Counted from the whole stretch's first letter, positions 27,870-49,949 are shown. The stretch is 60,220 bases of DNA, filler included, from 6 parts of 6 records of this genome joined end to end with filler, not necessarily neighbours in it; one strand, 5' to 3'. Translations and numbers: made by a program. The notes: a model not told the origin generated them from the sequence alone.

Positions 27870-29747
27870 CTAAATTCGACGTGAAGATGAATCCATAAAA
27901 GTTTGAAACCACATTTCTAACATCAGCAACATATAAATCCATCCACTATAATCACGTTTTCCCTGTTTATGATATTTCAATACCTTTTCAACAACATCTG
28001 TTTTGAAAAGACCACGTTCTCGACATTTTTTATCCAGTAGCACATCCTGGGTATAGCCGTTTAGCGTTGTTTTAAACCATTGATTGACCGGTACAGCAAA
28101 TCCATGCTTAGGTTTTGTGAGAATTTCAGGGGAACATATTTCTTTAACATTTTTTTCAACAAATACTTACTTGTTCCATTTTTCATCTTTAAGTTTACAG
28201 GTAATTGACTTGCAAATTCAACCACCCTGTAATCCAGTAATGGGGCACGTGTTTCAAGCGAGTTCCCCATACTCATTCGATCTACTTTAACTAATATGTC
28301 ACCAGGTAAATAGAGTTTTTTGTCAATATATTGTAAACGGGTCAGTTTATCTGAAAAATGATATTTTGCTATTAATTGTTGAATGTGGTCACCAACATTA
28401 TTTTTGTTTAACTGCCGAATCAAGCTGGAGGATAAAACATCCTCTCTGATATAGGGGAAAAACCCTAACACCTCTGGCCCATCTTCAACAGAGGCAGAAG
28501 CCACATATTTTAATAAATTACGCATAGGTGCATTTATTGGTATCACTTGAGCAAGTTCACCAAAAATCATTTTTCTCAAAGCTCTGGGCAACCGAATCAA
28601 ATAATCGTATTGATTTCTCTTTTGATAACTGTTGTACCCGGCAAACAATTCATCCCCTCCATCACCGGAAAGGATAACAGTCACATGTTCCCGCGCCATC
28701 TTTGACACATAATAAGTAGGAATGGCCGATGAATCAGCAAATGGTTCATCAAAATGCCAGACCAGTTTGGGCAACAGTTGGATAGCATCGGTATTCACTT
28801 TTAATACTTTGTGATCAGTGTGACAATGCTTCGAAACCTTATGTGCCTCTTCCAACTCTGAGAAGGTTTTTTCGGCAAAATCTATTGTAAAAGTTTGCAC
28901 AGGTTGCGAATTTTGCTTCGCCATCATTGCTACAATCGCACTGGAATCAATTCCGCCACTTAAAAAAGCACCTAAAGGCACATCACTAATCATTCGACAA
29001 CGGACAGCGTCCAAAAGCAACGATTCCAATTCCTCCGCGTAATCATCTTCAGACCGGGAAAAGACTGGTTGCGGATTTGGTAAATCCCAATATTTTTTCT
29101 TCACAATAACCGTTTTTAAATACCAGGTAACTTGCCTCCTGAATTTTAGAGATATTTTTAAAAATTGTCCAGGGGGCAGGGATATATCCTAAAGTAAAAT
29201 ATAAATTCAAGGCAGCCATATCCAATTCACGCGGAACATTTTGCATCATCAAAATAGCTTTTAACTCAGATGCAAAAACAAACTGTTCACCGTTGTGGAA
29301 ATAATAGAGTGGCTTTTTACCTAATCTATCTCTTGCAAGAAACAGCTTCTGATGCTTTTTATCCCAAAGGGCAAATGAAAACATACCATTTAAATATTTT
29401 ACACATTCATCATTATAAAAATGGTATGCCGCTATGATAACTTCAGTATCAGAGTGCGTTAAAAAACGAAAACCCTTTTTTATTAACTGATCTCGCAATT
29501 CTAAAAAATTATATATCTCTCCATTAAAGGCGATTACATACCGTTCTTGCCAATCTTGCATTGGTTGATCACCAGTATTGAGATCAATAATAGAGAGTCT
29601 TGTATGCCCTAAAGCAATGTTCTCATCGACATATTTCCCTTCACTATCGGGGCCCCGATGCGCCAATAGTTTTCCCATATTGTCCAGGAGCTGTCCGCAT
29701 TCTTCCGAACTTTTATGTTCAGGTAAAAAGCCGAAAATTCCACACAT
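27870..29747 (-). CDS. asnB: Asparagine synthase (glutamine-hydrolysing) family amidotransferase (three frameshifts)
   Basis: MCGIFG, HRGPD, RLSIID, FNGEIYN, FLSGGIDSS, SGDGGDELFAGY. The C-terminus KHGFAVP..LEMWFQTF..SRRI* is recovered manually to 27870. Confidence 0.9.
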
Positions 29748-29752
29748 AAAAT

Positions 29753-31969
29753 TTACCTTTGTAAAAAGTCAAGCCATCCCATTAATTCTAAACGAGTGCG
29801 TCTGTGGGAGAAAACCAGATTCTCTGAAAGATAACTCGCATCACGCCTGTGTATAACATATGGATTGACATTTTTTTTATTAATGCCATTAAAAGTTGAA
29901 AAGGCCAAATCATAACCCGAATCTTTTAGCATGGATTGACACTTTGAATTTTGCCTTCCCCAGGGATAGGCAAATGTTTTTACCGAACAATCAAATGTTT
30001 GTTCAATAATACCTTTAGAAGAATTTACCTCATGATATAATGTTTTGTCATCTAATGTATCCATATACAAATGACGCATTGAATGGGCACCTAATGTAAC
30101 AAGCCCGCTATCGAGTAAGGTTCTCGTCTCTTCTTTGGACATGACTTTCATATCATTGGATAAAGATAAATCCTCTGATAATTTGTGCAACCGGTTACAG
30201 AATGTTTCGCGTAACTTTTCATCATTCAGGTTTAGCACTCTAACGATCTCGCGTATCATTTGAAAAACATCACGCTTTTCAAAAGAACCGTTTTGGATAA
30301 AAAGCCACTCGTATTCTTCATTCAACTCTCTCCACGACTCAGGGTGTTGATGGAACAAGGCGTGTAAACGCTTTATGACATCACACCACCATATATCTTT
30401 TCCGGACGAAATAGTATCACCTACAAGAAACACAAAAAATGGCACGTTATATTTTTTGAGTACCGGAAAAGCGTAGGAATAAATATCTTGAAATCCATCA
30501 TCGAAAGTAATTGTGAATACAGGCTCATCAAATCCATGAGAGCTTTTCATACGATCCGCTATTTCTTCCAAACCTACTGCTTTGGCATTTTCTGAAAGAT
30601 ATCCCACCTGTTTTTCAAAAGTTTCGAGAGGTATAGACTGCTGAGGTTGTAATAGTGTATGCCATTTCTCAAAAGGGACAACCTGATGAGAACCAATAAC
30701 ATGTAATCCATTGGCAATGTGTGCTTTACTCACCTTCAAAGTGACTGATAATGTATTCAGCAAGGATTTTTTTGCAAGAGTTTTAATATTACTGTTTTTC
30801 TTTCGATTATCGGAAAAGGATCTGCTGTATAAATAAGCATAGTGATTCATGGTTTGGAACAGATCGTGCTTATTTTCAATGCCTTTTCTGGCGTTCTGAC
30901 CTAATTGATTTCGACATTTTTCATCATTCAGTAAAAGTCCGAGAGCATTTGCAAGCTCTTGAGGCGATTTTGTGGGTACCAATAGTCCATTTACCTTATT
31001 ATCAATAATATAAGGAGTCCCTCCCACAGCTGTTGCGACAACCGGTTTCGCCATGGCCATTGCTTCAAGAATAGTATTGCTCATTCCTTCATATATCGAT
31101 GAATTTACATATATATCAAAAGCGCCTATTACTTTGGGTATATCTTTTTGCATTCCTAAAAATGTAGTGGCATTTGTAATACCAAGTGCATGTGCCTTCT
31201 CGCGAAGTTTTTCAGTGTAATCTCCATACCCAACGATTGCAAGATGCACATCATTTCTGTTACGCTTCACCTCAGCAAAGGCTGACATTAAATTCTCAAT
31301 ATTCTTGACGGGTCGCAAAAAACCAACCACAGTACCAATAATAATAGAATTTAAAGGTAGTTTTAACTCACGCCGATTTTGTTTCTGATCATAATCCAAT
31401 TGAAAACGAGTCAGATCGACTCCATTTTTTATACTCACTATTTGCCAGGGGAAGAGTATATTTAACTTTTGCCAATCTGAGGCGATATCATCAGAAACGG
31501 TTGTCATCATATCATATAGCGGTAGTAATAATCTATTTACAATACGACGTTTTGTCTTAAATTCGTTATGCTCTGCTTCCCGCCCATGTTCGCCATGAAT
31601 TGACACGGCAACACCAGCAAGTCTGGCAGCCAATATCGAATAAAGCATTGTCGCCCAATTGTGGGAATGAATAATATCGAATTTATTTTCCCGCAATATT
31701 TTAGCTAGTTGCCAAACCAAACGCCAATCAAATCCTGAACGTCGTGTTAATTTGATGAGATTCACTTCAGAAGGTACCTTTGCCAGAGCTTCCTCTTGAT
31801 GACCACTAAAATAAATAATCGTCATATCAAAAGGCCCTTTTATCAAAGCTGTCGATTGCTTAACAACTCCGAGTTCAGTGCCTGACATCGTCAGGTAGCT
31901 TAAAACATGAGCAATACGAATTTTCTCACCAGAATACGTTTTATTTTCTGAAACATGGGCCATAATCAT
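29753..31969 (-). CDS. GT4 glycosyltransferase fused to a NodB-type polysaccharide deacetylase
   Basis: IHSHNW, HGEHG, EGMSNTILEAMA (GT4); TFDDG, GAHSMRH, FAYPWG (CE4). Confidence 0.88.
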   Translation of the reverse strand: MIMAHVSENKTYSGEKIRIAHVLSYLTMSGTELGVVKQSTALIKGPFDMTIIYFSGHQEEALAKVPSEVNLIKLTRRSGFDWRLVWQLAKILRENKFDIIHSHNWATMLYSILAARLAGVAVSIHGEHGREAEHNEFKTKRRIVNRLLLPLYDMMTTVSDDIASDWQKLNILFPWQIVSIKNGVDLTRFQLDYDQKQNRRELKLPLNSIIIGTVVGFLRPVKNIENLMSAFAEVKRNRNDVHLAIVGYGDYTEKLREKAHALGITNATTFLGMQKDIPKVIGAFDIYVNSSIYEGMSNTILEAMAMAKPVVATAVGGTPYIIDNKVNGLLVPTKSPQELANALGLLLNDEKCRNQLGQNARKGIENKHDLFQTMNHYAYLYSRSFSDNRKKNSNIKTLAKKSLLNTLSVTLKVSKAHIANGLHVIGSHQVVPFEKWHTLLQPQQSIPLETFEKQVGYLSENAKAVGLEEIADRMKSSHGFDEPVFTITFDDGFQDIYSYAFPVLKKYNVPFFVFLVGDTISSGKDIWWCDVIKRLHALFHQHPESWRELNEEYEWLFIQNGSFEKRDVFQMIREIVRVLNLNDEKLRETFCNRLHKLSEDLSLSNDMKVMSKEETRTLLDSGLVTLGAHSMRHLYMDTLDDKTLYHEVNSSKGIIEQTFDCSVKTFAYPWGRQNSKCQSMLKDSGYDLAFSTFNGINKKNVNPYVIHRRDASYLSENLVFSHRRTRLELMGWLDFLQR

Positions 31970-31982
31970 ATCTTCTTTTGAT

Positions 31983-32924
31983 TCATTTCCGATTCAACGT
32001 TTTGTGTAGTATCAACAACCATATGATTATTAATATGTTGATCGCTATTTTGATGAAGCTTATTACCTCCTTGTATAAGATTTCCTGACATTCGGGTTGA
32101 GTTGCCGAATGATTACTATTTTTTAAAACAAGAAGGCTCACTCTATCAGAATAGTTCTTTTTTAGTAACCAAGGTTGAATTAATCGTTTAAATTCCTGAT
32201 AATAGACATCTTTTTCACCATATATAAAAAAAAGCTTCCGTCCACTGATAATATATTTTTCCAAATGATCCAATAATAATTCATGATAAGTAATATTACT
32301 ATTTATAGGGATCTTGTTGTTTCGAATGACATTACCATTTTTTAACAGGATACCGAGCGATTGAATGAGCACTTTTGGTTCACGAATGGCCGAGAATAAT
32401 TTTTTCCATTCTTCTTTTGATTTCATTCTGTTCAGTATGCTCCTGGATCCACTTTTATTCATCTCAACATCTAACGGTGCACCCTCGACATCTGCTGGCA
32501 ATCCCATAATTATCAAAAACTTAACATCATGTTGATCTACTGCTGTTAAAAGTGAAGTAATTGCACCACCACAAAGGCCGAAAAGGGCCACATCACCGAT
32601 ATTTTCTGTTTTTTTTACATTACTCAGAATAAATCTAAAAGAATCTATAAAATAGCCATGCTGAAACTGATACCATAAATAAAAAACAGAATCACTATTA
32701 AAATCTCCTTCACTGTCACCAATCCCCGGAAAATCAAATCTGAAAGAGTTAATACCAGCTTTGGCCAGGTGTCTTGATAATTTTACATAAAGTCTGTGCG
32801 GACCGACTCTATATTTCAAACCTGCCGGAGGCATGATAACAGTATGTTGATTTGGTGTATTGGAATAATGAAATACCCCCCACATATCCTGCTTTTTGTA
32901 GTTTATCTTTAATAGCTTTTCCAT
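31983..32924 (-). CDS. Alpha/beta hydrolase with Cys nucleophile (exosortase-A-system hydrolase 1-like)
   Basis: YRVGPHRLYVKLSR, FRFDFPGIGDSEG, FGLCGGA, YGEKD, NSNH. Confidence 0.75.
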   Translation of the reverse strand: MEKLLKINYKKQDMWGVFHYSNTPNQHTVIMPPAGLKYRVGPHRLYVKLSRHLAKAGINSFRFDFPGIGDSEGDFNSDSVFYLWYQFQHGYFIDSFRFILSNVKKTENIGDVALFGLCGGAITSLLTAVDQHDVKFLIIMGLPADVEGAPLDVEMNKSGSRSILNRMKSKEEWKKLFSAIREPKVLIQSLGILLKNGNVIRNNKIPINSNITYHELLLDHLEKYIISGRKLFFIYGEKDVYYQEFKRLIQPWLLKKNYSDRVSLLVLKNSNHSATQPECQEILYKEVISFIKIAINILIIIWLLILHKTLNRK

Positions 32925-33715
32925 TTAGACGTTAGCTTCCACCCATTTTGTTATAGATTCTGAAAGAGAATTAATATTCGTATAATAATAATTTTGTTCC
33001 AGCCAGAAGGCTGGTACGAGAAGCGTTGATATTTCTAAATATTTAGAACAATTTTCAAATAGATCATTCCCCGCATTTTTTGTTGTTGTGCCATTATTAA
33101 AAACAAGAATTGGCTTGTCATAATTTTCAGATTTTGTGCCCAACATTTGCTCATATCGAAGGCCTGAAATAAGAAATCCTTCATAATTAAATGAGTCACC
33201 TCTTTCCAAATCACTAACTATTTGTTGACTTGTTTTAACGACATGCCCATATAATCCCATCTGTGCGGCAACATTTTTTCTCAACAAATCCTTCAGATAT
33301 CGGCTTGTATTCGTGATAGGTGCAATTCCAATAATAAAATCTGGATTTAGCATCTTGCTAATCATTAAAGCTTGATTTACTCCCCATCTAAAGCCGACAA
33401 TACCTTTTTTTCTTCACCTCCCAATGATAACATTTTTTCCCAGGCAACCTGAATATCTGAAATTTCATCTTGCAGGCTAAACTGTTTAAAATCGCCGTCA
33501 CTATCTCCGGTTCCTCTAAAATCAAAACGCAAGGTAGAAAAACCAACATTGCTCACTTTATTAGCGAGACAATATCTTACTCTGCGTGAGGCATTTTTTT
33601 CTTCTGCAAACGCTGATATAAAAAGCAACGAACCTTTCTGTCTCTTTTCGGGGTTTGAATGCCAGGCACCAAACATATTTTCTGTTCCATTTTGGAAATA
33701 AAAACAATCCATCAT
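32925..33715 (-). CDS. Alpha/beta hydrolase homologue (exosortase-A-system hydrolase 2-like; frameshifted near 33410)
   Basis: AFAEEKNASRR, RFDFRGTGDSDGDF; the restored elbow reads IVGFRWG; PAFW near the C-terminus. Confidence 0.72.
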
Positions 33716-35064
33716 GATGTATGCACTCGTATTTTGTTCGGTTCCAGATTTCCGACTCCCACTTTATATGCTTCCAATAAAAATTTATAAAAAGGTCCTT
33801 CTTTATTATCCGGGTTATTCAAATTAATATAATATTCATCGTCTGTTGATTTTTTTGTGGCAGGAAACAATATCTCTTTGGCGCTAATATAATCTAAAGC
33901 AACCGGATCGACAGAGGCTAAAATCGTTTTAGCCTGGTATCGTTTATCCAAATCTATCCTGCTACCCCACCCCACCCATTCTGCTTCGACGATATTTAAA
34001 TCCGGTTTACACACATTCACGATCCAGTGCCCTAAAGCGCCACCTGTATAGTGAAAATGAAAAGAACCAAATTCTCCTAGAATATTTGCTAATGTTTTAC
34101 CAAATCCATATTTTCTATGATAGTAGTTCAAGTAAATACTGTATCTCCAAAAGGCTGATTCATGCCCAATGAAATGCGTATTATAAAAACCTTCAGGTTT
34201 TGACCCATGATAACCACAAGACATATCTACAATCCCCATAAGATTTTTAACAGACGCTGTTACTCCGCAATAATCGCTATGATGATTAAGACATGAAAAA
34301 TTAACAAGTTTGAGCTTGTTGCGATTGAACGTGCCATTCTCATAGATCCCCCTCATCAAATCAATTTTACATCCTGTAATTTTGCTGGTAAAAATAGGAT
34401 ACGTCATCATGCATTTTCTCCCCTCAGGAGAAATATATACATTATTTTCCAACCAAACGTATCCATCTCCATCGTCCGGGTGGTTAACCCACTTCCCTGA
34501 ACCTACAGCATTTCCTTCTCTTGGCTGGGGATTTGGACCCACATCATGCCACTGATAATCTGAAATATTTTCAAATCCTGCCTTTCTGTAAAAATCTATT
34601 AACTCAAGATAACTGAAATTGCCATTCCGATGTTCAGAGTTCCAGCCGCGGCTAATGTCCTCCTTGTAATGATGATTATCCGCTAAAATAATCTCACCTG
34701 CAAAATCAGTTCTTTTTAATACGTGATCAATAAATCCTTTAAGAGCATTGGTGTTAGTTGCACCCTGATTCCACCATTGTGAATTTAGTTTGATAACAAT
34801 GACATCATCAGGTTGAATCAGTTCATCAATTCCGCCCAGTAGGTTTATTATTGTACCTACATTTTCTTCCGGTGATTTCCCCTGTGTCAAAAACACATGA
34901 GAATAACCTTCCTGATCCACACCAATTCGTTTACCAGGATTATGATTTATTTCATTCGCAGTCATTGAATTAGCATTTACACCTTTTGGTAAAAAAGATG
35001 AGAGTCCAATCAAACCAATTATTTTAAAAAATAGCCTTCTGGAAAGGTTCAATTTTTTCTCCAC
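33712..35064 (-). CDS. Tat-exported DUF362-family protein
   Basis: SRRLFFK twin-arginine signal; VIKLN, GVTASVKNLMG, SVDPVALD. Confidence 0.72.
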   Translation of the reverse strand: MEKKLNLSRRLFFKIIGLIGLSSFLPKGVNANSMTANEINHNPGKRIGVDQEGYSHVFLTQGKSPEENVGTIINLLGGIDELIQPDDVIVIKLNSQWWNQGATNTNALKGFIDHVLKRTDFAGEIILADNHHYKEDISRGWNSEHRNGNFSYLELIDFYRKAGFENISDYQWHDVGPNPQPREGNAVGSGKWVNHPDDGDGYVWLENNVYISPEGRKCMMTYPIFTSKITGCKIDLMRGIYENGTFNRNKLKLVNFSCLNHHSDYCGVTASVKNLMGIVDMSCGYHGSKPEGFYNTHFIGHESAFWRYSIYLNYYHRKYGFGKTLANILGEFGSFHFHYTGGALGHWIVNVCKPDLNIVEAEWVGWGSRIDLDKRYQAKTILASVDPVALDYISAKEILFPATKKSTDDEYYINLNNPDNKEGPFYKFLLEAYKVGVGNLEPNKIRVHTS

Positions 35065-35103
35065 AAATAACTCTTAAAATCAAAGAGGTTCATTTTTATA
35101 AAG

Positions 35104-35352
35104 TCAATTCATTTGTTGTTGCTTTGATTCAATAAAGACAGAAAGATTTTCGATGGAATCAAAATTTTCCCGTTTAATTTCCAAATCGTCAACATCAAAT
35201 TGATATTCGGTTTCGACAAAAGATACGAGTTCAAGAATTCCAGTGGAATCAATCACGCCTTTATCAAGTAATGAGTCACTATCGGTTAGTTCGGCACCAT
35301 CACCATAGAGAAAATTTTCAATAATGTAATCACGAAGTTTGTTTTTCACCAT
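35104..35352 (-). CDS. Acyl/peptidyl carrier protein
   Basis: 82 aa, acidic; GVIDSTGILELVSFVE phosphopantetheine site; ENFDSI. Confidence 0.92.
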   Translation of the reverse strand: MVKNKLRDYIIENFLYGDGAELTDSDSLLDKGVIDSTGILELVSFVETEYQFDVDDLEIKRENFDSIENLSVFIESKQQQMN

Positions 35353-35373
35353 TTGGAGACCTCCCGGAAATAG

Positions 35374-36351
35374 TTATTTCAGTTCATCGTTTACAGTTAA
35401 AGGATAGAACCTTAAGTAATTTGTTGTACGCTGTTTTTGTTTAATATCATTAATAATTTTTTCAACCTGGTTAACATCAATATCAAGTTCCTGGCTAATA
35501 TCAACCGGATTTTTCCCTTGCTCACAAGCGCTCCAGATAGAATCCATAATCTCAAATGGTATTTGAAAGAAAAATTCTTCCTGAGTAACCTCAGCACTAT
35601 AAGTGTCTGTTGTAGGTTTTCGATCTACAATATCCGTGGGTATCTCAAGATATCGCGCTAATTGATAAACCTGAGACTTGAAGAGATGAATGATGGGTTT
35701 CAAATCTGCCCCTCCATCACCAAATTTCACGAAAAAACCCTGGTCATGTTCATTTTTATTACCTGTGCCCAGCACAGCGTAATTATGTAGCTCTGCATGA
35801 TAATATAACATGGTCATGCGTAATCTTTGTTTCATATTGGAAGCAGCCACAATTTGAAGATAGTCGTTCAAATTTGGCCTTTTCGATGTTTCATTACCTT
35901 TTTCATCAATTACACCAACTCGAAAAACATTGAGACCGGTGCGTTTGTACAGCTCAGAATCAATCGTTATTTTGACTTTATGCTTGTCAGAAAAGTCCGG
36001 AAAGAGGTGTCGGATCGCCTCATTTCTTCTTTCATATGCGCCCATCCCTTTAAGACCGCTTGTTATATCTTCTACGATAAACTTTATACCCAATTTTTCT
36101 GCTAAATCACGTGCAAGTGTTTCACTTTCCGTGCTTGATTCCTCTTCCGGAAGGGCAATTCCAAGGACTCTCTCTTTACCCAATGCGCGAGTGCAAAGAG
36201 CTACTACCACAGAGGAATCAACACCACCGCTAATACCTACAATCGCTCCTTTTTTCTTTAGCACTTTTGTTACAACATGGCGAATCCATTCTTCAAGTTC
36301 TTCGCATGCCAGCTTTGCATCAAACTCACTTAAATTGTTCACTGGTATCAT
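35374..36351 (-). CDS. nadE: NH3-dependent NAD synthetase paralogue
   Basis: GISGGVDSS, NMKQRLRM, GTGNKNE, GFFVKFGDG, LFKSQVYQLA; start taken at MIPV after the AGAGGG SD. Confidence 0.85.
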   Translation of the reverse strand: MIPVNNLSEFDAKLACEELEEWIRHVVTKVLKKKGAIVGISGGVDSSVVVALCTRALGKERVLGIALPEEESSTESETLARDLAEKLGIKFIVEDITSGLKGMGAYERRNEAIRHLFPDFSDKHKVKITIDSELYKRTGLNVFRVGVIDEKGNETSKRPNLNDYLQIVAASNMKQRLRMTMLYYHAELHNYAVLGTGNKNEHDQGFFVKFGDGGADLKPIIHLFKSQVYQLARYLEIPTDIVDRKPTTDTYSAEVTQEEFFFQIPFEIMDSIWSACEQGKNPVDISQELDIDVNQVEKIINDIKQKQRTTNYLRFYPLTVNDELK

Positions 36352-36466
36352 ATTCCACCCTCTATCTGTTTTAATATTTTCAACATGACTTGAATTATAT
36401 ACCAATAACGTTAATTAAATTATAATGTTAAACAAATCGCTTAATATAGATTGAATATACAGTTTA

Positions 36467-38011
36467 TTAATTATTTGCTTCCATGGCGGTCAACTTTTTT
36501 TTATCAATTTTACCATTGCTGTTGTGTGGCAATTCTGTTCGGAACTCTATATACTTGGGCATTGCAAAATTTTCCAAATGTTTCTTACAATGTGCCATCA
36601 CCTCATTTTTATTGATATTTACTCCATCTCTGGGTATTATAATTGCTTTGATAGCCTGACCTAATACACTATCATCCACCCCAATAACAGCAGCTTCAGA
36701 GATGTCATCTAAAAGATAAAGGACATTCTCAATTTCTTTTGGACTGACTTTTTCACCTCTACTTTTGATAATATCATCTTTCCGGGCTACAAAATACAAA
36801 TAATCATCCTTATCCTTATAAAACAGATCACCTGAATAAAGGACTCTCTCATACTGGTATTTACCAGGCCGAAGTCGTTCAGCCGTTTTTTCGGGCAGGT
36901 TCCAATATCCCTGCATTACGTTCGAACCTCGTATGACCAATTCACCGATCTGATCCGGGCCAAGTTCTATACCATCATCATCGACAATATAGACTTCGCA
37001 ATTTGGCATTGCTTTCCCTACAGAGTTAGGCCGTTCATCTATTTCGCCTGGTGGTAAATAGGCCACCCTCTTGCATTCTGTTAATCCATACATCGAATAT
37101 ATGCTTGTGTCTGGAAAAAATTGTCGTAATTTTCTAATAAATTCAACGGGTAATGCCGCACCTGTGTTCGAAATATATCTTAGGCTGGGTAACCGTAATG
37201 AGGTTAAATCTGTCATTTTGAAAAGCATGGCAAAAATCGTCGGCACACCTGGTAACCCGGTAACATTTTCCTCTATCATTCTTTGGACAAGCTCTTGTGG
37301 ATAAACAAATCCGTTTTCCAAAATAAGAGTCCCGCTAAATGACATCGTCATTAACAATTGGTATAAACCGTAATCAAAAGAAAGAGGAAGAACATTGATG
37401 ACGATATCTTCTGTGACATTTTCCAGATAGGTCGTAATAGATCTTAGAGCAGACACCATATTATGATGCGTCATCATCACACCCTTTGGATTGCCCGTGC
37501 TGCCAGACGTATAAATCAATGAGGCTAATTCACTGTCGACAATGCGGATATTAGGTGTATCGATTGACGCATTAGCAAAAATATCAGATAATAAAGTTGT
37601 ATTTGGCGGAATCACCTTTGTATCGCCATCTAAAACACAAAATGACACACTTTGCGAATTAGTGATAGTTGTGCTTTGAGAATGAATGAGATGACTTTGA
37701 GTAAAAAAGGCTTTAGCCTGACAATCATCAATGATATATTGAAGTTTTTGTCCTTTTGTTGTGGGATTTACGACTACAAAAACACCTCCTGCTTTTAAAA
37801 CTGCATAAATAGAAATACATGTATTAATGGCATTATCCATTTGTAACACCACTCGATCACCTTTTTTCAAACCAGATTCTATTAAAAATTGTGCAATCTG
37901 ATTTGACTTTTTATCCATTTCATTATAGGTTAACGCACTCTGTCGTGATTTTATGGCGATCTTTTCCGGGTAATTTAATCTACTATTTTCTAGAAAATTA
38001 TGCATCAACAT
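36467..38011 (-). CDS. Stand-alone adenylate-forming enzyme (ANL superfamily)
   Basis: YTSGSTGNPKG, SFDYG, MYGLTE, SGDL, RKDDIIKSRGEKV, NGKIDKK. Confidence 0.92.
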   Translation of the reverse strand: MLMHNFLENSRLNYPEKIAIKSRQSALTYNEMDKKSNQIAQFLIESGLKKGDRVVLQMDNAINTCISIYAVLKAGGVFVVVNPTTKGQKLQYIIDDCQAKAFFTQSHLIHSQSTTITNSQSVSFCVLDGDTKVIPPNTTLLSDIFANASIDTPNIRIVDSELASLIYTSGSTGNPKGVMMTHHNMVSALRSITTYLENVTEDIVINVLPLSFDYGLYQLLMTMSFSGTLILENGFVYPQELVQRMIEENVTGLPGVPTIFAMLFKMTDLTSLRLPSLRYISNTGAALPVEFIRKLRQFFPDTSIYSMYGLTECKRVAYLPPGEIDERPNSVGKAMPNCEVYIVDDDGIELGPDQIGELVIRGSNVMQGYWNLPEKTAERLRPGKYQYERVLYSGDLFYKDKDDYLYFVARKDDIIKSRGEKVSPKEIENVLYLLDDISEAAVIGVDDSVLGQAIKAIIIPRDGVNINKNEVMAHCKKHLENFAMPKYIEFRTELPHNSNGKIDKKKLTAMEANN

Positions 38012-40008
38012 TGCTCTACTCCCATGTTTTTTCTTTTTCTATGATCGCAGATTATTCTATTTTCTTCTTTTATTTTATTTTTTATTTTCGGTGTATTATG
38101 AATAAAATGTTCCGTTAGCAATTGTGTTGTGATAACACCCATTGCTGCCATTTCTTCTCTTGCCGTAAACTGACGGCTGGAGTCATTTAATCGCTTGAAA
38201 AGGATATCCACTTTGGAGTTATTAAAAACGTCATCCTTTTTTAAATTCTGAGATAAGAGAACAGGAGAAAGATGCTCATTGACAGCTTTCAAAACAGTAC
38301 GAATAGGTGCCCGATATGGTTGTTTTTTACGAGAAACAATAGATTCTGGGAGTTCTTTTTTAAACGCATTTTTAAGGACCCATTTTTCATCCAAAACACG
38401 TAATTTTAGACTGGGTGACAGTCTGTTTGCAAATTCAATAACTCTATGGTCTAAAAATGGAAAACGTCCTTCAACCGAATGGGCCATTAGCATACGATCC
38501 CCTTGTGAGGATAATAAATAATTGCTTAGAAAAATATAGGCCTCCAAAAATTGTGCCTTATTCTGACTGTGCATTCCATCTAATCGTCCGTTAATTCTTT
38601 CCCGCAAATCTGTTATCGGATCATAATCATTTAAAACATTTTTAACGTCATTGCTTAAAAAGGATAATATAAATTGTGTATTTGACCATCTTATATTGTG
38701 TGAATAAAACGGATCATCTGTACTTAATAAATCTTTGTTGAAAAAGGCTTGCCAGAAACCATCTCCACGAGCATCCCGGGCATCTACATAGTTATAAATA
38801 CGCGAAAATAATTTGGGGCGCCATTTTGAATCAGGATAACGCGCCCAAAACCGCCGAATTTTCACTTCCTTGAATATATTATAACCGGTCAATATCTCAT
38901 CAGCACCTTCACCCGTTAAAACTACTTTATAACCAGAATCTCGCACCAATTGCGATAGTAAAAATAATGGTATCGGAGCTGTTCGCAAAATAGGCTTTTC
39001 TGTATGATAAATAACATCACTCAAAGCTTTGCCGACTTGAGACGGATTCACTGCAATATAAGAATGATTTGTATTCAAATATTGACACAACTCTTGTTGA
39101 TAGATAGATTCATCATAATTACGGTCACTAAATCTTATGGAAAAAGTTCTTAATTCATTCTGATGAATATGTCTTACTAAACCTGTGATCGTTGAAGAAT
39201 CCAGGCCTCCACTCAAATAAGTTCCCACCGGCACATCTGCCCGTAATCTCAATCTAACAGCATCTTTAAGGAGATTCTTCAATTCAATAGTTGCTTTTTC
39301 TGCATCTGTTATTATCTCATCCGGCCTAAAATCAAAATGAAAGTCCCAATATGGTTTTATCCGTACACCCGATTCATTCACCCACATATAGTGACCTGCA
39401 GGTAATTCCTTCACATCCTGAAATGGTGTCTCACCGGGTAATGGGGCCCAAAACGTAAATATTTGAGCCAGGGCTTTTAAATCCAATTCCCTGTTAATTC
39501 TTGGATCAGCAAAAAGTGCTTTAATCTCTGAAGCAAATACAAAAGAATTATTTTTGTGCCAATAATATAACGGACGAATGCCCACCCGATCCCGAGCAAG
39601 AAACAACCTTTGCTTTTTCGTATCCCAGATAGCGAAAGCAAATTGTCCATTCAATTCCTCTACTACTTTTTCACCTTTTTCCTCGAATAAATGTAATATA
39701 ACTTCTGTGTCACTGGTTGTACGAAAGGTGTGTCCTTGCCGTAAAAGCTTTTCTTTTATTTCAACATAATTAAAGATTTCTCCATTAAACGTTATCCAGA
39801 GTGTACCATCCTCATTGGTCATGGGTTGTCCACCACTTGTCAAATCTATGATACTGAGTCGTGTATGCCCTAAAATGACAGAATCATCAAGATACAAACC
39901 GCTTGCATCTGGTCCACGGTGTGATAATGTCGCTGTCATTGATTTCATCACTGATTCGTCTAAATAATTTTGTTGCGATATTTCAAATTGTCCGCAGATT
40001 CCACACAT
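38005..40008 (-). CDS. asnB: Asparagine synthase (glutamine-hydrolysing) family amidotransferase
   Basis: MCGICG, HRGPD, FNGEIFN, YLSGGLDSS, TGEGADE, EGRFPFLD, KQPYRAP. Confidence 0.93.
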   Translation of the reverse strand: MCGICGQFEISQQNYLDESVMKSMTATLSHRGPDASGLYLDDSVILGHTRLSIIDLTSGGQPMTNEDGTLWITFNGEIFNYVEIKEKLLRQGHTFRTTSDTEVILHLFEEKGEKVVEELNGQFAFAIWDTKKQRLFLARDRVGIRPLYYWHKNNSFVFASEIKALFADPRINRELDLKALAQIFTFWAPLPGETPFQDVKELPAGHYMWVNESGVRIKPYWDFHFDFRPDEIITDAEKATIELKNLLKDAVRLRLRADVPVGTYLSGGLDSSTITGLVRHIHQNELRTFSIRFSDRNYDESIYQQELCQYLNTNHSYIAVNPSQVGKALSDVIYHTEKPILRTAPIPLFLLSQLVRDSGYKVVLTGEGADEILTGYNIFKEVKIRRFWARYPDSKWRPKLFSRIYNYVDARDARGDGFWQAFFNKDLLSTDDPFYSHNIRWSNTQFILSFLSNDVKNVLNDYDPITDLRERINGRLDGMHSQNKAQFLEAYIFLSNYLLSSQGDRMLMAHSVEGRFPFLDHRVIEFANRLSPSLKLRVLDEKWVLKNAFKKELPESIVSRKKQPYRAPIRTVLKAVNEHLSPVLLSQNLKKDDVFNNSKVDILFKRLNDSSRQFTAREEMAAMGVITTQLLTEHFIHNTPKIKNKIKEENRIICDHRKRKNMGVEQC

Positions 40009-40141
40009 ATTGATTTCTCACTCCAATAATCCATAGTAATTACAGTAAAACTTGGCAATAAAAATAGCTTGTATATATTTTATCGAATTGAATAAATATC
40101 TCTATTTCTTACAAAAAGATTACAATATGTCAAATACATCC

Positions 40142-41752: not shown

Positions 41753-43237
41753 TTATTTTATTACAATCATTTTTTTCAATTGCACAACCCTATCGACTTC
41801 CATGCGACAAAAATATAAACCGGAGGGAACCTGATTACTGCTATCATCTTTTCCATTCCAGCTCACCCGGTGCAAACCAAACCCCTGATACTCTTTTACC
41901 AGGGTTTTTATTTTCTTACCTAAAATTGAGTATACATCTAATAAAACATCATGATTTTGTAAAAGTCTATATGTTAAAGTCGTTTTCGAATTAAACGGAT
42001 TTGGAAAGTTCTCGTAAAGGTCAAAAACATTGGGTAAATGGCGCTGGATCACGACATCAACCTGAATTTCATCGTAAATAGTCGTAAAGCCATCAGTATC
42101 TATTTGCACCAACCTATAATACCATTGTCCAGATGTGACTGAGTTATCAATATATTCATAGAAATTTAAATTATTCGAAGTACCATTCCCGGGTATATAG
42201 GGAATGGTCAATGTTTTAAACGTATCGGAAAACATCCCCCTTCTTTGCACCTGAAATCCAATATTATTATCCTCAGAAAGGGTTTTCCATTCTAATACGA
42301 CCTGTCCAGAGGGCATAACCGTTCCGTTAAAATAGGCAAGCGAAACAGGAACAGGCACACTTTTAAGGTCAAGTAAAGTTTCAACGAAACGAATCACTTG
42401 CATATCTTGAGGTAAATAATCATGTTCTACATTATCCAGGAAGAGAAAATTTCCAGGACTTGACTCTAAGACATTTATACCATCCGGAACGGCAAAAGTA
42501 ATCCCGCCGGCTCCCGCAATTAAGGCACTATTAGCTGGCTCTATCCATTCGTCCGGATCTATTCGAAGAGTAAAATAGAGAATGTTTCTTAGATTATCCG
42601 GCAATACCGACACGATACCAGCGTTGTCCTCTCCAATACTATATGGAGTTTCATCAACGGGATTTGCAGGTGTGCCATTTAAAGCAATTTGTAACGGATT
42701 ATTTGCCCCTGATGTCGCAAAAGCAGGACACATTTCAATATTTCCTTCTCCGGCATAACCACAAAGAGAATTGGTTCCATGATTTGCACCACCGAGGCTA
42801 ATCCATATGTTAACACGTTCCGGATTCATATTTACGATATACCATCGGCTACTCAGGGCCCCCATGCTGTGAGCAACCATATTTACTTTAACTGGTATTT
42901 CCCCGGTATAACCCGCATTGCGAGCGGCTGTTTCCGCATTACTGAGTAGATTATCTATAGCAGGTGCTATAACTTTCTCAGCAGCATAAACATTTGATGT
43001 ATCGCTGGGTTCTATATTCACCGCATATAAATATTCGGCTGGATAGCCAACACCTATAAGATAAGAGATCATCGTATTCCATGATCCTGAATCAAGTCCG
43101 GAACCATGAACAAAAAGTACAGGGGTTTTAGTATAATCCTGGGCATGTGCATAGAAGCCACTTTGCTTTGAGAACGGAAAAAGGCAGATATTAACAAGAA
43201 ATAACGCAATGGTTATATTAAATCTACTTGTATCCAC
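41753..43237 (-). CDS. Secreted lipase/esterase with Ig-like and FlgD-Ig/sorting-type C-terminal domains
   Basis: Signal peptide, PVLFVHG, VAHSMG, GANHGT; VPVSLAYF..WKTLSEDNNIGF; NFPNPFN..WNGKD..SGLYF. Confidence 0.85.
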   Translation of the reverse strand: MDTSRFNITIALFLVNICLFPFSKQSGFYAHAQDYTKTPVLFVHGSGLDSGSWNTMISYLIGVGYPAEYLYAVNIEPSDTSNVYAAEKVIAPAIDNLLSNAETAARNAGYTGEIPVKVNMVAHSMGALSSRWYIVNMNPERVNIWISLGGANHGTNSLCGYAGEGNIEMCPAFATSGANNPLQIALNGTPANPVDETPYSIGEDNAGIVSVLPDNLRNILYFTLRIDPDEWIEPANSALIAGAGGITFAVPDGINVLESSPGNFLFLDNVEHDYLPQDMQVIRFVETLLDLKSVPVPVSLAYFNGTVMPSGQVVLEWKTLSEDNNIGFQVQRRGMFSDTFKTLTIPYIPGNGTSNNLNFYEYIDNSVTSGQWYYRLVQIDTDGFTTIYDEIQVDVVIQRHLPNVFDLYENFPNPFNSKTTLTYRLLQNHDVLLDVYSILGKKIKTLVKEYQGFGLHRVSWNGKDDSSNQVPSGLYFCRMEVDRVVQLKKMIVIK

Positions 43238-44077: not shown

Positions 44078-44971
44078 TTAGTATCCGAGTAATCCTGACA
44101 CAAAATCCATAAAATCTGGATGGTAGAGTATTGAGCTGTGGTTCACCTTTCTATTGAATAATCCCCAGCTGCCTTTGAACAGAAAATTCCCTGAACTGGT
44201 CTCCACAATATCAATACCCTCTAACATTGATACATCTATGCCACCAGCACCATCCAAAATAGCACTCTTTTCGGGTTTTATCCATTTATCCGGATCTATT
44301 CTAATAGTGAAATATTCTATATTACATAATTTGTCAGGAGGTATAGATTTTCTTCCGGGATTATCCATCCCGATACCGTAAGGTGTTTCATCTATAGGTT
44401 TTTCAAGTGTCCCGTTAAGCTCCACCTGAACGACATTTTTTGCAGCATCAGAGGCAAAGGAAGGACACATTTCACGAGCGGCCTCATCTTCAAATTCACA
44501 CAGTGTATTCGTGCCATGATTGGCACCGGTAACTGAAATCCATTTTCGTACTCGTTCAGGATGTATTTTTGTTGCATACCACCTTGCACTCACAGCGCCC
44601 ATGCTATGAGATACAATATCCAACTTGAATATATCCTTTCGATAACCTTCGGCCAGGGCTGCCTGTTTCGCTCTTTTCAGCAAAGAGTCTGCTGCCGGGG
44701 CAATAAAAGAATAAGCGGCTTGCACGTTTGCCATTGTATTAGGCAAAATATCCACTGCGAACAAATAGTGTGAAGGATATCCAACTCCTTGTAAATGTTT
44801 AATAAATGGCTGAAAATCATCCGGGCTCATACCGTGACCGTGTACAAATAGCACCGGTGTTTTAGAGTAATCTTGCTGTTGCTGTGTATCGATTTGTTTA
44901 CATCTCGCTATCAAACTAAACAATACTAACAAAAGAATGAATTTGCGGCCAGTAATGGAGTATATTTTCAT
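44078..44971 (-). CDS. Exported lipase/esterase, possibly a lipoprotein
   Basis: Hydrophobic leader ending IARC; PVLFVHG, VSHSMG, GANHGT, DETPY. Confidence 0.82.
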   Translation of the reverse strand: MKIYSITGRKFILLLVLFSLIARCKQIDTQQQQDYSKTPVLFVHGHGMSPDDFQPFIKHLQGVGYPSHYLFAVDILPNTMANVQAAYSFIAPAADSLLKRAKQAALAEGYRKDIFKLDIVSHSMGAVSARWYATKIHPERVRKWISVTGANHGTNTLCEFEDEAAREMCPSFASDAAKNVVQVELNGTLEKPIDETPYGIGMDNPGRKSIPPDKLCNIEYFTIRIDPDKWIKPEKSAILDGAGGIDVSMLEGIDIVETSSGNFLFKGSWGLFNRKVNHSSILYHPDFMDFVSGLLGY

Positions 44972-45603
44972 TTACGCCTCTTAACAATACGAAGGGGATT
45001 TCCCACAGCAACGATATAAGGCTCTACTTTACTAGTGACAACCGATCCAGCACCAACGACACTCCCCTCGCCGATATCACTCATCACAACACTATTTGTT
45101 CCCACCCAACAATCATTTTCAAGCTGAATTCGCCTATACCGTCCACCTTGCAAAGCCATGGGTACATCGGTTCTGCTAAAATTATGATAATATTTACCAC
45201 TCAAAAATCGACAGCCATCTGCAATTAGTACATATGAACCCAGATTACAATGGTGAAAAGTATTGAACATACCTATATGAACATGATCGCCGATCTCTAT
45301 ATCACGATAAAAAAATACAGTGCCAAATCCTATTAATACATTCCGACCGCATTTCTTTAGAGTTAATCTGTAAAATTCATAGCGCATAATCGTTCCCAGT
45401 GCGAATGGTACCAATGCAAACAACTCCGATCCGGATCGAAATATAAAATCTGAAAACCTTGATACAAGTGCTACTGGCAGTACTATGGGCCAGGTAAAAA
45501 TCCCTATCAATCTTGTCACGTAATAAAGTGCAGGGGATTGGGAAAACTGGAAATACTCAATATCTGTGTATTTATCCGTAACTATTGGATCACATTTTCT
45601 CAT
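44968..45603 (-). CDS. Hexapeptide-repeat (LbH) acyltransferase
   Basis: IEIGDHVHIG, LENDCWVGTNS, IGEGSVVGAGSVVT, VGNP. Confidence 0.88.
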   Translation of the reverse strand: MRKCDPIVTDKYTDIEYFQFSQSPALYYVTRLIGIFTWPIVLPVALVSRFSDFIFRSGSELFALVPFALGTIMRYEFYRLTLKKCGRNVLIGFGTVFFYRDIEIGDHVHIGMFNTFHHCNLGSYVLIADGCRFLSGKYYHNFSRTDVPMALQGGRYRRIQLENDCWVGTNSVVMSDIGEGSVVGAGSVVTSKVEPYIVAVGNPLRIVKRRK

Positions 45604-46596
45604 TGAATTGCCCATTACCATGGATTCTGCTCGGAAATAAAGGTTCCACAACCTTTATTTTTTTTACTGAAACATCTCGTGCATGCTGATAGAGTGGCAA
45701 AACCTGATATTCTGCCTCAATCTTGTCCAGGGTTTGACTGACGAACTGTAATTTTTTCTCAGCTGGAATATTCATGGCCGGGAAAAATGAAAGATCATTT
45801 GTATCATCGCAACCAAGAAAATCTGTCGGATGCAAAAGAAGAGATGGATGCGTATCTGTCCATCGACAAAGAGCCAAAGCTGAACTGAGATAACCAAAGG
45901 CCATTTTTCTGGCTATTGAATTCAAGACCAGCAGATAGCTCAGGTGAAATGGCATTCTGAGAATGGGCATAGTAGTGACCGGTATTTCTAAAAGGCCACT
46001 ATTATTTTCTATATTCCAGCGATACGGCTTAATCGATCTCAGACCATCCCGAAATGTGCCTCCCAGTAACTTGCGCTGATGTTTTTCTTCCGCAGAAAGT
46101 TTCATTGTCATGAGATAATAAGTCCGTGCCAGAGGTGTCATTAAGCTGGGTAGTGTTGTCGCATCATATTCATAGCCAAGTTGATATAGCACGTGCAAAC
46201 ACGACTGTGACAAACTAAATCCCGGTCCACGAAAACCAACAGGTTTTTGGCCGGTAATAGATTCAATAATTTCATCTGCTTTTGTAATTTCATCTTTAAT
46301 TTCATTTTCCGTGTATAAATGAAGCCAGGGTTCATGATTAAATGAATGATTACCTATTTCATGACCCGCCTCAGAGATTGAAGACAACAAGTCCCGATTA
46401 TTTTCCAATGCCGCATCCTGACCCACAATAAAAAAGTTATCTTTAGATTTCTCTTTTTCAAAAAATCCAGTACTCTTGGGATTACAATATCAAAATACGA
46501 AGGAAAGGTCTCCCAGTCTTTTTCTCCATGAGTTCTGAGATAAGTCCATTTATCATCAAGGTCAAATGACAAGCTTGCAATATTCTTTTTACTCAT
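45590..46596 (-). CDS. Polysaccharide deacetylase (frameshifted at the A run near 46430)
   Basis: SLSFDLDD, ITFFIVG (restored), GHEIGNHSFNHEPW, GFRGPGF, YDAT, LLHP. Confidence 0.85.
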
Positions 46597-46694
46597 TGTC
46601 CACACTTGTTGATATTTATTAACAGCATATAAGAAAATAAAAAATCATTTCGCCATAAAAAACGTTATATGATGAAATGATCCGCCATATCAAA

Positions 46695-47663
46695 TCAGTG
46701 AAATTCCAACTTGATCCCGAAATACATACGCATAAATTGTAAAAGCTCGCAATGGATTTTATTTTTTGAATAACACGTTTTATTGGTTAAAAAATCAATC
46801 TCAAACGATTTTTTTAATTTTGTCGGCGGCACCCAATTGGGTCGATTTATTAAAAAAATATATTCACTTGATGATGAATTGGATATATTTGGTACATTTC
46901 CGTGTGAAGCAATTAAAATAATGTAATAATCTCGATTATTATAACGAAACCTGATTTGCCGATCCTTGTTCTCTTCAGTAACCAGCCCATTAACACGATC
47001 CAGCTTCATATCTGTAAACCGTTGTATAATATGCCATATAGCTGTATCTCGTTGTGCTGACGACATTTTACGCTTGATCTTATCCATTGTTGTCACCTGT
47101 TTTGCCGGCCACCCCTCCACAATTTGATCTTGATGAATATTTTTTGTGACTACTGAACGTGAATTTATAAACACATGGTCTTCAATGGTTATGCCTGCAT
47201 GAATAAATACTCCCGCAGCAATCCAGACATTATCACCAACAGAGACAGGAGCCATTTTAACCCAATATCCCTCTGTATAAGGTAAAAATGATCCATGAGT
47301 GAAAATCATACAGCGTGGTCCAAGAGCCGAATTGTGGCCAATAGATACATTCTCATCCGTATTAATCAAAGATTGTGGACCAACATAACCGTGTTTACCA
47401 ATGCGGAATCCAGCAGCCCCATAAATAATAATCATGCTGCTAATAACTGTATATGCTCCGATCTTTACATCTCCCTGGCAGTGTATTATGGATAGAGAAC
47501 GTAGTTCAGCATAATCCCCAAGCTCGATTTGATGACCTGATATAGCAGAAAACCAGCCTATTTTAGCATGTTTGCCAATTTTAGCGTTACAAAGCCATTT
47601 CAGGATATATATCTTCAGGGTAGGTGGAGATACAAAAACGAGAATAAAAATCACATTCTTCAT
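46695..47663 (-). CDS. Hexapeptide-repeat acyltransferase with C-terminal extension
   Basis: Multiple LbH repeats, MIFTH, VGDNVWIAAG, SRSVVTK, GWPAK, plus about 130 extra residues. Confidence 0.82.
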   Translation of the reverse strand: MKNVIFILVFVSPPTLKIYILKWLCNAKIGKHAKIGWFSAISGHQIELGDYAELRSLSIIHCQGDVKIGAYTVISSMIIIYGAAGFRIGKHGYVGPQSLINTDENVSIGHNSALGPRCMIFTHGSFLPYTEGYWVKMAPVSVGDNVWIAAGVFIHAGITIEDHVFINSRSVVTKNIHQDQIVEGWPAKQVTTMDKIKRKMSSAQRDTAIWHIIQRFTDMKLDRVNGLVTEENKDRQIRFRYNNRDYYIILIASHGNVPNISNSSSSEYIFLINRPNWVPPTKLKKSFEIDFLTNKTCYSKNKIHCELLQFMRMYFGIKLEFH

Positions 47664-49188: not shown

Positions 49189-49949
49189 AAAACGAAGATG
49201 GCTTTCTACCGTTCGTTCACCAAATGAGCCAAATTGCGGGGGTAACCTCAATTACCATTGCCAGCGAATATTTAAGCAATTCGCGCCAGGGAAAGGGCGT
49301 TTTGTTTGGCGAAGTTACCGGAGTTACACCTGCCGAGTTGGTAATTATTGGCACCAGTACCGCAGCAGAATATGCAGCCCGTGCCGCACTTGGCCTTGGT
49401 ATTTTTGTGAAAGTTTTCGATACATCGGTTTACGATCTCAGTAAGATGGAAGAAAAACTGGGACGTAGAATTTTTACCTCGGTTTTCTATCCGAAAGTAT
49501 TGCGAAAAGCGCTGGTTTCGGCCGACGCAGTTATTGGAGCCACGTCGTTTAATACCCCTCCAAAATTTAAGGTTAACGAAGATTTGGTAAAACAAATGAA
49601 AGAAGGTTCGGTAATAATCGATCTGAATGTTAGCCAGGGAGGCTGTTTCGAAACCTCGAAATGCACCGATCTGAATAATCCTACATTTACAAAACACGGT
49701 GTGGTTCATTATTGCGTACCCAATACCCCGTCGTTGGTGGCGCGAACAGCTTCCATTTCGTTAAGCAATATTTTAATTCCAATTTTGCTGGCAATTGGCG
49801 ACAATGGCGGCGTTGACAACTACATAAAATCGTCGAAAGGATTCAGAAAAGGAGTTTATATTTATCGGGGAATTCTTACCAATCCCGATGTCAGCAGCAT
49901 GTTCAATTTGCCATCGCAAGACATTAATCTACTTCTCGCTGCATTTTAA
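49189..49949 (+). CDS. ald: Alanine dehydrogenase homologue (5' truncated, degenerate motifs)
   Basis: MSQIAG, GKGVLFG, ADAVIGA, QGGCFETS, HGVVHYCVPN. Confidence 0.8.

Follow-up and report, generated by a model that had tools for sequence, protein, structure and literature searches.

The stretch of DNA analysed here, referred to as the window, comprises 60,220 nucleotides, filler included, in which six parts of six records of one genome are joined end to end. Our analysis concerns four genes at positions 35,104–40,008, which encode an AsnB-type glutamine amidotransferase, a stand-alone ANL adenylating ligase, a paralogue of NadE and a small carrier protein. These genes form a real, intact and deeply conserved module and not a chance neighbourhood; the module is widespread and unstudied, and its nearest relative as a whole set is an operon of Sinorhizobium meliloti. 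The reading to which we incline, with somewhat better than even confidence, is that the β-carboxyl group of an aspartate-like acid forms the link to the carrier, that two PP-loop enzymes amidate the remaining free carboxylate or N-modify it in some other way, and that the group so made is moved to a de-N-acetylated amino sugar. Such a module would bring together VinN-like carrier loading, a pair of PP-loop enzymes that amidate at the expense of ATP, and surface-glycan decoration, and its conservation ranges from Bacteroidota, Chloroflexota and Cyanobacteria to rhizobia.

The cassette consists of four intact, co-oriented open reading frames (ORFs) that fill these bounds exactly:

38005–40008, minus strand: AsnB-type glutamine amidotransferase with N-terminal nucleophile (Ntn) glutaminase and PP-loop synthetase domains, 667 residues (Pfam, NCBIfam)
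36467–38011, minus strand: stand-alone ANL adenylating ligase with a VinN-type pocket, predicted carrier loader, 514 residues (Pfam, pocket alignment)
35374–36405, minus strand: NadE paralogue, PP-loop ATP pyrophosphatase with an insertion of ∼54 residues, 343 residues as called (Pfam, NCBIfam)
35104–35352, minus strand: dedicated carrier protein with the phosphopantetheine-site motif GVIDSTG, 82 residues (translation, weak NCBIfam matches)

The ATG of the ligase gene (38011–38009) precedes the TGA of the AsnB gene (38007–38005), so that the two genes overlap by 7 nt. An earlier note, made on this DNA from its sequence alone, had described four intact co-oriented genes, the ligase gene overlapping that of an intact Ntn amidotransferase and the carrier bearing an Asp-Ser motif, and the ORFs, family scans and motifs bear out each of these points. 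The AsnB protein matches GATase_7 (168.7 bits) and Asn_synthase (293.1 bits); it begins MCGICG, which places the N-terminal nucleophile at Cys2, and carries the PP-loop LSGGLDS in alignment. The carrier matches no Pfam family at E ≤ 0.001 and gives only weak carrier-protein matches in NCBIfam (the best at 51 bits, with a cut-off of 130) and only 18 bits against the DltC model. Its D35 and S36 are invariant among 23 aligned orthologues, and across 50 aligned carrier ORFs the Ser is present in all 50 and Asp-Ser in 49. The best of its NCBIfam matches is to the OlsH/OlsI ornithine-lipid carrier, an assignment rejected on that score; the OlsH/OlsI pathway requires a planctomycete GH3-like enzyme (PMC12493201), and no such enzyme appeared in the window scans. 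A contig assembled separately from the public run X1 spans 28000–40100 unbroken, with zero differences from the window within 35104–40008; X1 is possibly the source sample of the window, and the agreement thus confirms the assembly, not the biology.

Conservation of the set was surveyed from the NadE-like protein. An alignment of the window protein with 15 relatives (A1) was scanned against one genome per prokaryote species, where it matched at least 601 stretches, with at least 570 confirmed relatives, and the best 80 loci were kept. Their named lineages are Chloroflexota, Ignavibacteria, Bacteroidetes/Cytophagia, Calditrichota, Zixibacteria, KSB1, Aminicenantes and Cyanobacteria. Partners were sought by tblastn with the window proteins in the 39 loci whose sequence runs for 6 kb or more to either side of the NadE-like gene, and within 6 kb of it were found:

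AsnB homologue: 34 of 39 loci
carrier protein: 34 of 39 loci
ANL ligase, any: 33 of 39 loci
ANL ligase with at least 40% identity: 20 of 39 loci
all three partners: 29 of 39 loci

The four genes therefore do occur together elsewhere, as the earlier note had required of a functional set. Ten loci are exceptions (L003, L010, L015, L025, L028, L047, L056, L063, L075 and L076); in two of them, L047 and L063, the carrier lies at 6–7.5 kb. L003, the closest related locus, has downstream genes as in the window and no ligase within 10 kb, a 38%-type ligase being found ∼6 kb past the end of the locus on the same contig. The gene set is kept while its order differs between lineages. When 991 ORFs of at least 70 residues, lying within 9 kb in 83 sources, were clustered, the four cassette families were present in 77, 63, 56 and 49 of the sources and the next commonest family in 11; nothing beyond the four is widely shared, and the module is therefore self-contained.

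In a tblastn search of plasmids the NadE-like protein was located in 240 records, of which Sinorhizobium accounts for 83. Plasmids of S. medicae and Shinella carry genes annotated, in order, as asnB, acyl carrier protein (ACP), AMP-binding protein and nadE, and pSymB of S. meliloti 1021 matches the S. medicae cassette DNA at 88.6% identity over 100% of its length. A similar four-gene set in Sinorhizobium, which the earlier note listed for S. meliloti as SMb20649–SMb20652, was thus located; the two outer tags, SMb20649 and SMb20652, are those of the note. As in the window, the four families are adjacent and co-oriented, the window proteins being 44–48% identical to those of S. medicae (AsnB 44%, NadE 44%, ligase 47%, carrier 48%), and the pocket motifs of the ligases are alike. 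The two sets differ in order, asnB–ACP–ligase–nadE in the operon and asnB–ligase–nadE–ACP in the window, and in setting, the Sinorhizobium set being a stand-alone operon without glycan genes whereas that of the window lies inside a polysaccharide locus. Sinorhizobium and Shinella are cultured and genetically tractable, which makes the module directly testable. No paper in the literature searched on the cassette assigns a product to any of its members.

The ligase pocket and predicted loading of the carrier

The ligase matches AMP-binding (300.7 bits) and AMP-binding_C (66 bits) in Pfam. Its top NCBIfam family is TIGR03098, the exosortase-A-associated ligase, at 493 bits, under the cut-off of 592; neither it nor seven relatives reach any NCBIfam cut-off, those of the fatty-acid ligase families included, and the orthologues also score best on TIGR03098. 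Among solved structures, the best single-domain relatives of the full-length protein are 8xjz (231 bits), VinN (3wvn, 228 bits) and malonyl-CoA synthetase (201 bits). LgrA was discarded as the nearest ligase, its 308 bits being an artefact of two A domains summed (132 + 170).

When the comparison is confined to the pocket segment (residues 195–345), VinN (3wv4/3wvn) scores 83.7 bits versus 38.8 for the next chain, and the ungapped alignment reads as follows:

A4 region: FDYG in the window, WDFG in VinN
opposite side of the pocket: NTGAA in the window, NSAAA in VinN
β13–β14 loop: TECKR in the window, TECKR in VinN

VinN residues D230, F231, S299, K330 and R331 and the length of the loop are all matched, with Tyr for Phe and Thr for Ser. 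The earlier note had drawn attention to SFDYG (at residue 211) as placing an Asp at the A4 position, where it binds the α-amino group in the A domains of nonribosomal peptide synthetases (NRPSs); this was right, and is sharpened here in that the whole pocket aligns with VinN. The Lys and Arg of VinN are said, in the original paper on the enzyme, to hold the second carboxylate of the substrate. VinN takes 3-methylaspartate, and also L-aspartate, as a β-amino acid; in the review PMC11253843, D230 is described as binding the amino group, F231 and S299 as bulkier than their counterparts in α-amino-acid domains, and K330 and R331 as sitting in a loop one residue shorter, these pocket residues and the short loop together forming the basis of 3-methylaspartate/aspartate recognition. 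Among 31 orthologous ligases (46–54% identity), 27 keep the VinN-like pattern.

For the loading step the nearest characterised relatives are thus VinN and VinL. The vicenistatin starter system to which they belong, VinN/VinL(/VinO), resembles the cassette in its stand-alone ANL enzyme and stand-alone carrier, in the aligned pocket and in the shortened β13–β14 loop. It differs in that VinN is partnered by a pyridoxal phosphate (PLP) decarboxylase where the window has two PP-loop amide-forming enzymes, and in that the window has a glycan context and no polyketide synthase; the similarity, at 228 bits over the full length, is moderate. No PLP decarboxylase turned up in general family scans of the window ORFs.

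That the ligase loads its carrier, rather than only making acyl-CoA, is supported by the S. meliloti orthologue. The operon (Ramos-Vega et al. 2009) is taken here from PMC7232532 and PMC5686131. The former states that smb20650, the ligase gene, and smb20651, the carrier gene, are transcribed together and that SMb20650, in E. coli forming holo-SMb20651, gives rise to acylated SMb20651; in the same text, SMb20650 is no substitute for FadD in either growth on oleate or clearing of free fatty acids (PMC7232532). A 2017 paper still says that the function of the SMb20651 carrier ‘needs further investigation’.

The predicted amide-forming enzymes and the glycan surroundings

The NadE-like protein matches NAD_synthase in two stretches (194.9 bits), and the top Foldseek matches of its model are all NadE structures (TMq 0.62), with 17–28% identity to solved NadEs. 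It scores 191 bits against the equivalog NF010587, under the cut-off of 255. The ORF has 343 codons as called, and its relatives start near residue 20–27. Residues 115–183 stand in for ∼15 residues of the solved NadE 2e18, an insertion of ∼54 residues that in the AlphaFold2 model forms a helix and a three-stranded sheet (mean pLDDT, the predicted local distance difference test, 81.7). The PP-loop reads SGGVDS; G57, S59, G60, G61, D63 and S64 are kept in at least 97% of the 80 relatives, as are Y124, R127, P136, I146, G170 and R176 of the insertion and the GFFVKxGDG motif; on the conservation of the PP-loop and of this motif the paralogue looks catalytically intact. Canonical NH3-dependent NadE has the same fold, SGGxDS PP-loop and GxFxKxGDG motif. 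The cassette copy is set apart by its insertion, by its tight linkage to a carrier and by the presence of another NadE in every genome checked: a better-scoring canonical NAD_synthase gene (249–265 bits, open frames of 290–588 residues) is present in all five cassette genomes of relatives, where the two proteins are 22–27% identical, while cassette copies from different phyla are 49–59% identical to that of the window. As judged from these comparisons, the cassette protein is a paralogue and not the cell's NadE in the five genomes, and to call it ‘NAD synthase’ is probably an error. A gene annotated as NAD(+) synthase, with at least 570 relatives in species-representative genomes, probably belongs to another pathway, and metabolic reconstructions that count it as NadE would then be wrong.

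The AsnB protein passes the cut-off of the general model TIGR01536 (523.5 bits, cut-off 267). The second-best family is TIGR03108, the amidotransferase of the XrtA system (436 bits, below the cut-off of 817), and the housekeeping-type equivalog NF006949 is missed (375 bits, cut-off 499). Its nearest solved relative is the hydroxyamidotransferase 7ylz, which aligns over both domains (250 bits); E. coli AsnB (1ct9) gives 212 bits, the best-scoring stretch being the glutaminase domain only. The copy number of AsnB leaves its role unsettled, and its place in the pathway rests on linkage. The view of the earlier note that NAD and asparagine synthesis are probably not the real functions is accordingly sustained for NadE, while for AsnB copy number leaves room for housekeeping.

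The earlier note had also placed the cassette in a polysaccharide locus, and a GT4–deacetylase fusion, a flippase fragment, hexapeptide acyltransferases and deacetylases do surround it. The features closest to the subject are:

29753–31969, minus strand: fusion of a GT4 glycosyltransferase and a polysaccharide deacetylase (Glycos_transf_1, Glyco_transf_4, Polysacc_deac_1; TIGR03088 at 245 bits, cut-off 409)
31983–33715, minus strand: two α/β-hydrolases like exosortase-A-associated hydrolases 1 and 2, candidate transferases (NCBIfam)
44968–47663, minus strand: two hexapeptide-repeat acyltransferases flanking a deacetylase-like gene (Hexapep, Polysacc_deac_1)

The hydrolases score 90.7 bits against TIGR03100 (cut-off 168) and 63.5 bits against TIGR03101 (cut-off 203), and the genes at 44968–47663 have WcaF/WbbJ/NeuD-type and weak LpxD matches, all below cut-offs. 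Downstream of the carrier gene and on the same strand are a DUF362 gene, the two hydrolases, the GT4–deacetylase fusion, a second and a third AsnB gene, a FemAB-like GNAT and the flippase fragment; upstream of the cassette are a PMT_2-like membrane protein, a lipase with a type IX secretion system (T9SS) tail, a methyltransferase, the two hexapeptide transferases, a deacetylase and a weakly VimE-like protein. Altogether the locus has three genes of deacetylase type, along with several for acyltransferases.

In 28 of the 39 loci the cassette has glycan-type genes nearby; 22 of these loci were recognised from recurrent gene clusters and six (L003, L023, L043, L046, L056 and L075) were added by a Pfam scan of the remaining 17. 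That scan covered, of 148 ORFs of at least 200 residues, the 100 that lie within 7 kb of the cassette, and glycan genes further out may be missed. The co-occurrence with glycan genes that the earlier note looked for therefore holds in these 28 loci and fails in 11. Recurrent neighbours are:

hexapeptide acyltransferases: 11 + 6 + 4 sources
Acyl_transf_3: 9 sources
DegT aminotransferases: 7 sources
Polysacc_synt_2/Bac_transf: 7 + 5 sources
phosphopantetheinyl transferases: 4 sources

In 11 sources a hexapeptide acyltransferase adjoins the carrier gene itself. An NRPS gene of ∼880 residues with condensation, carrier and thioesterase parts lies beside the cassette in L031, L047, L054 and one further source, all cyanobacterial.

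Two known systems bear comparison with this arrangement. In the Dlt system (DltA, DltC, the MBOAT protein DltB, and DltD) a small carrier of its own is likewise charged by an adenylating ligase so that a cell-surface polymer can be decorated; the cassette differs by adding two amide-forming enzymes, neither MBOAT nor DltD was found in the family scans of the window, and MBOAT was present in one (L023) of 17 scanned related loci. Genes of the XrtA/PEP-CTERM system supply the best families for the ligase (TIGR03098), the hydrolases (TIGR03100, TIGR03101) and the GT4 protein (TIGR03088) and the second for AsnB (TIGR03108), but all scores are under their cut-offs (493/592, 90.7/168, 63.5/203, 245/409 and 436/817, respectively). 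No exosortase or PEP-CTERM protein appeared in general family scans of the window ORFs, which found T9SS parts instead. The XrtA gene set includes a PLP decarboxylase and, to our knowledge, no NadE paralogue.

Side by side with these, the window contains a FemAB-like GNAT (24664–25455), an XrtA-type deacetylase-like gene (45590–46426), a VimE-like gene (47660–49042), the T9SS-tailed lipase (41753–43237) and PorQ (12958–14046). Together these genes hint that the locus may make a linking sugar of the Wbp/Vim kind for type IX cargo. The third AsnB-family gene (25861–27762) starts MEGICA, with no N-terminal Cys and a partial glutaminase match, and its product is probably glutaminase-dead, like the cyclase and ligase members of the family.

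The proposed pathway and its alternatives

In the pathway we propose, the ligase would adenylate an aspartate-like amino-dicarboxylic acid at the β-carboxyl group, as VinN does, and the acid would be thioesterified to the phosphopantetheine arm of the carrier with one carboxylate left free; the substrate is predicted from the pocket, and loading is seen for the S. meliloti orthologue only. AsnB would then draw ammonia from glutamine and amidate the free carboxylate through an acyl-adenylate, the simplest product being a carboxamide. The third step is the least certain: the NadE paralogue, which would make no NAD, may act on the tethered group with ATP once more, either by a further transfer of nitrogen that turns the amide into an amidine or nitrile, a reaction that PP-loop enzymes carry out with different substrates elsewhere, or by amide ligation to an amine. 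In the last step, suggested by the genetic context, an acyltransferase of the locus would move the group to an amino sugar freed by a deacetylase of the locus. Candidates for the transfer are the hexapeptide-repeat enzymes, the α/β-hydrolases and the FemAB-like GNAT; the GT4–deacetylase fusion could expose the acyl-accepting sugar amine, and the genes at 44968–47663 may likewise supply acyl transfer and de-N-acetylation. Of the NRPS-like building-block pathway for a glycan that had been put forward in the earlier note, the loading of the carrier is thus supported, through the S. meliloti orthologue, whereas amidation and glycan transfer are steps that we infer.

Several observations weigh against this reading. 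The ligase partner is not constant: an orthologue with at least 40% identity is present in only the 20 loci given above, and five genomes that lack an orthologous ligase close to the cassette showed none at another place either, at ≥45% identity. Four of the orthologous ligases (L013, L020, L021 and L026) have Gly, Ala and Gln replacing Asp, Thr and Lys, the amino-binding Asp being gone, and a further 25 cassette-linked ligases (24–38% identity) fall into other classes, in which the Asp is absent and the loop has one more residue. Such variation confines the aspartate reading to the subclass of the window. The Arg is conserved in all 56 aligned cassette-linked ligases, in every class, and we read the constant feature of the substrate, on this sequence evidence, as a second carboxylate, the window subclass probably taking an amino-diacid of the aspartate type. 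The survey itself drew on the 80 loci most similar to the query among at least 570 relatives, which is not a random sample. The NadE-like protein passes the cut-off of NF002048, a NAD(+) synthase subfamily (421 bits, cut-off 313). The cassette AsnB is the sole Asn_synthase match (E ≤ 1e-20) in two of the five cassette genomes, others being present in three, so that a dual housekeeping role is possible; however, any AsnB is present in just seven of 14 control genomes, and a missing second copy therefore says little. Eleven of the 39 loci have no nearby glycan gene, and three of these carry the NRPS condensation-thioesterase gene instead; in some lineages a role in a free metabolite is thus possible. 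Lastly, Ramos-Vega and colleagues are said to have seen, in their 2009 work, acylation of the S. meliloti carrier with C12:0 and C18:0 in E. coli, which would point to fatty acids.

Among the alternatives, an unlikely one that nevertheless survives best divides the roles, such that the NadE paralogue alone acts on the carrier-bound acid and AsnB, in the manner of WbpS, amidates a uronic acid of the sugar. WbpS of Porphyromonas gingivalis, a member of the TIGR03108 family, converts a uronic acid to a uronamide, and the Wbp/Vim linking-sugar pathway strips the N-acetyl group from a sugar, re-acylates it with an amino acid and relies on this AsnB-family enzyme for amidation (PMC7468200). The pathway, which is that of P. 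gingivalis and Tannerella forsythia, shares with our proposal the logic of a re-acylated amino sugar and AsnB-family amidation, and the window is likewise T9SS-bearing, with a VimE-like deacetylase gene and a FemAB-like GNAT; it differs in having no carrier protein, ligase or NadE paralogue. WbpS-like action of AsnB would fit with TIGR03108 being its next-best family after the general model, but the score falls far short of the cut-off, the gene keeps its place next to the NadE paralogue and the carrier gene in 34 of 39 loci, glycan-free loci and the Sinorhizobium operon included, and the two further AsnB-family genes of the window could themselves serve as WbpS. The VimE model gives 64.8 bits against its window match (cut-off 440), and with Wbp/Vim-type models so far below their cut-offs we claim no membership.

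It is quite unlikely that the module makes a free secondary metabolite, as an NRPS-like starter or building-block pathway to which the glycan neighbourhood is incidental. The 11 glycan-free loci and the four cyanobacterial sources with a condensation-carrier-thioesterase gene would be accounted for in this way, and VinN, the closest characterised ligase, serves a macrolactam pathway. The sugar-modifying genes around the cassette in 28 of 39 loci and in the window, as well as the hexapeptide acyltransferases that abut the carrier gene in 11 sources, argue for the glycan.

A role in lipid synthesis, with the ligase as a fatty acyl-carrier-protein synthetase and an amidated lipid or fatty N-acyl group as the product, is very doubtful. 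It is in keeping with the acylation of the S. meliloti carrier in E. coli noted above; however, the pocket is polar and short, with Asp, Lys and Arg in the VinN arrangement, SMb20650 supports neither growth on oleate nor the clearing of free fatty acids, and the window ligase and its seven relatives reach no fatty-acid ligase cut-off. Hardly credible is the view that the cell's NAD synthetase and asparagine synthetase merely lie beside a ligase–carrier pair: the general cut-offs of NF002048 and TIGR01536 are passed and two of five genomes have no other Asn_synthase match, but against this stand the canonical NadE of all five cassette genomes and its low identity to the cassette copy, the conserved insertion of the latter, the scarcity of any AsnB in control genomes and a carrier linkage that holds over at least seven named lineages.

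As a speculative and improbable extension, the NadE paralogue may found a carrier-dependent branch of NadE enzymes whose reaction, new to the family, acts on a β-linked aspartyl thioester, for example by converting the amide from AsnB into an amidine or nitrile. The product, borne on a de-N-acetylated sugar, would offer a free amine for the attachment of secreted proteins by sortase-like enzymes, PorU of the type IX system in the window and exosortase in XrtA loci. Under this extension the carrier protein would open a different way to the ‘linking sugar’, for which P. gingivalis uses VimA. Should the group prove to anchor sorted surface proteins, that would be relevant to a question still open for exosortase and type IX systems.

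Neighbouring genes and quality of the record

The DUF362 gene (33712–35064) lies just downstream of the carrier gene and accompanies the cassette in eight of 83 sources; an Atlas search with it gave DUF362 clusters only. Its product has the twin-arginine-like motif RRxF at residues 9–12 in all eight aligned relatives (alignment A3) and is probably exported by the twin-arginine translocation (Tat) pathway. The protein was considered as an alternative loader and rejected, since the motif suggests export.

Two neighbouring genes are split over two frames: that of the hydrolase-2-like protein (32925–33715), with a frame change near 33383–33452, and the second AsnB gene (28061–29747). Letters absent from the window are present in the X1 contig within both breaks, at 33404 (one letter) and 29092, and at three more sites, 28126, 32047 and 35052; the breaks are therefore probably indel errors of the window assembly and not pseudogenes, and none of the sites falls within the four cassette genes.

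Elsewhere in the window, the rpoB ORF (17977–20604, 875 residues) stops at position 854 of the 1238 of its model. The C-terminal part was not found, 17028–17976 holding short ORFs and the next long ORF, 15639–17027, having no family match, and the G+C content falls to 0.30 at 16–18 kb; either an essential gene is cut short here or two pieces were joined in assembly. Also truncated in appearance are the flippase (23741–24499, 252 residues, model positions 31–269 of 492), an alanine dehydrogenase (49224–49949, only model positions 132–360 of 370) and the cmk gene (14190–14771), which is without its N-terminus. The ORF at 52683–53018 matches only the C-terminal 39 positions of a HepT toxin model (48.8 bits, cut-off 60) and is probably a fragment of a toxin-antitoxin gene.

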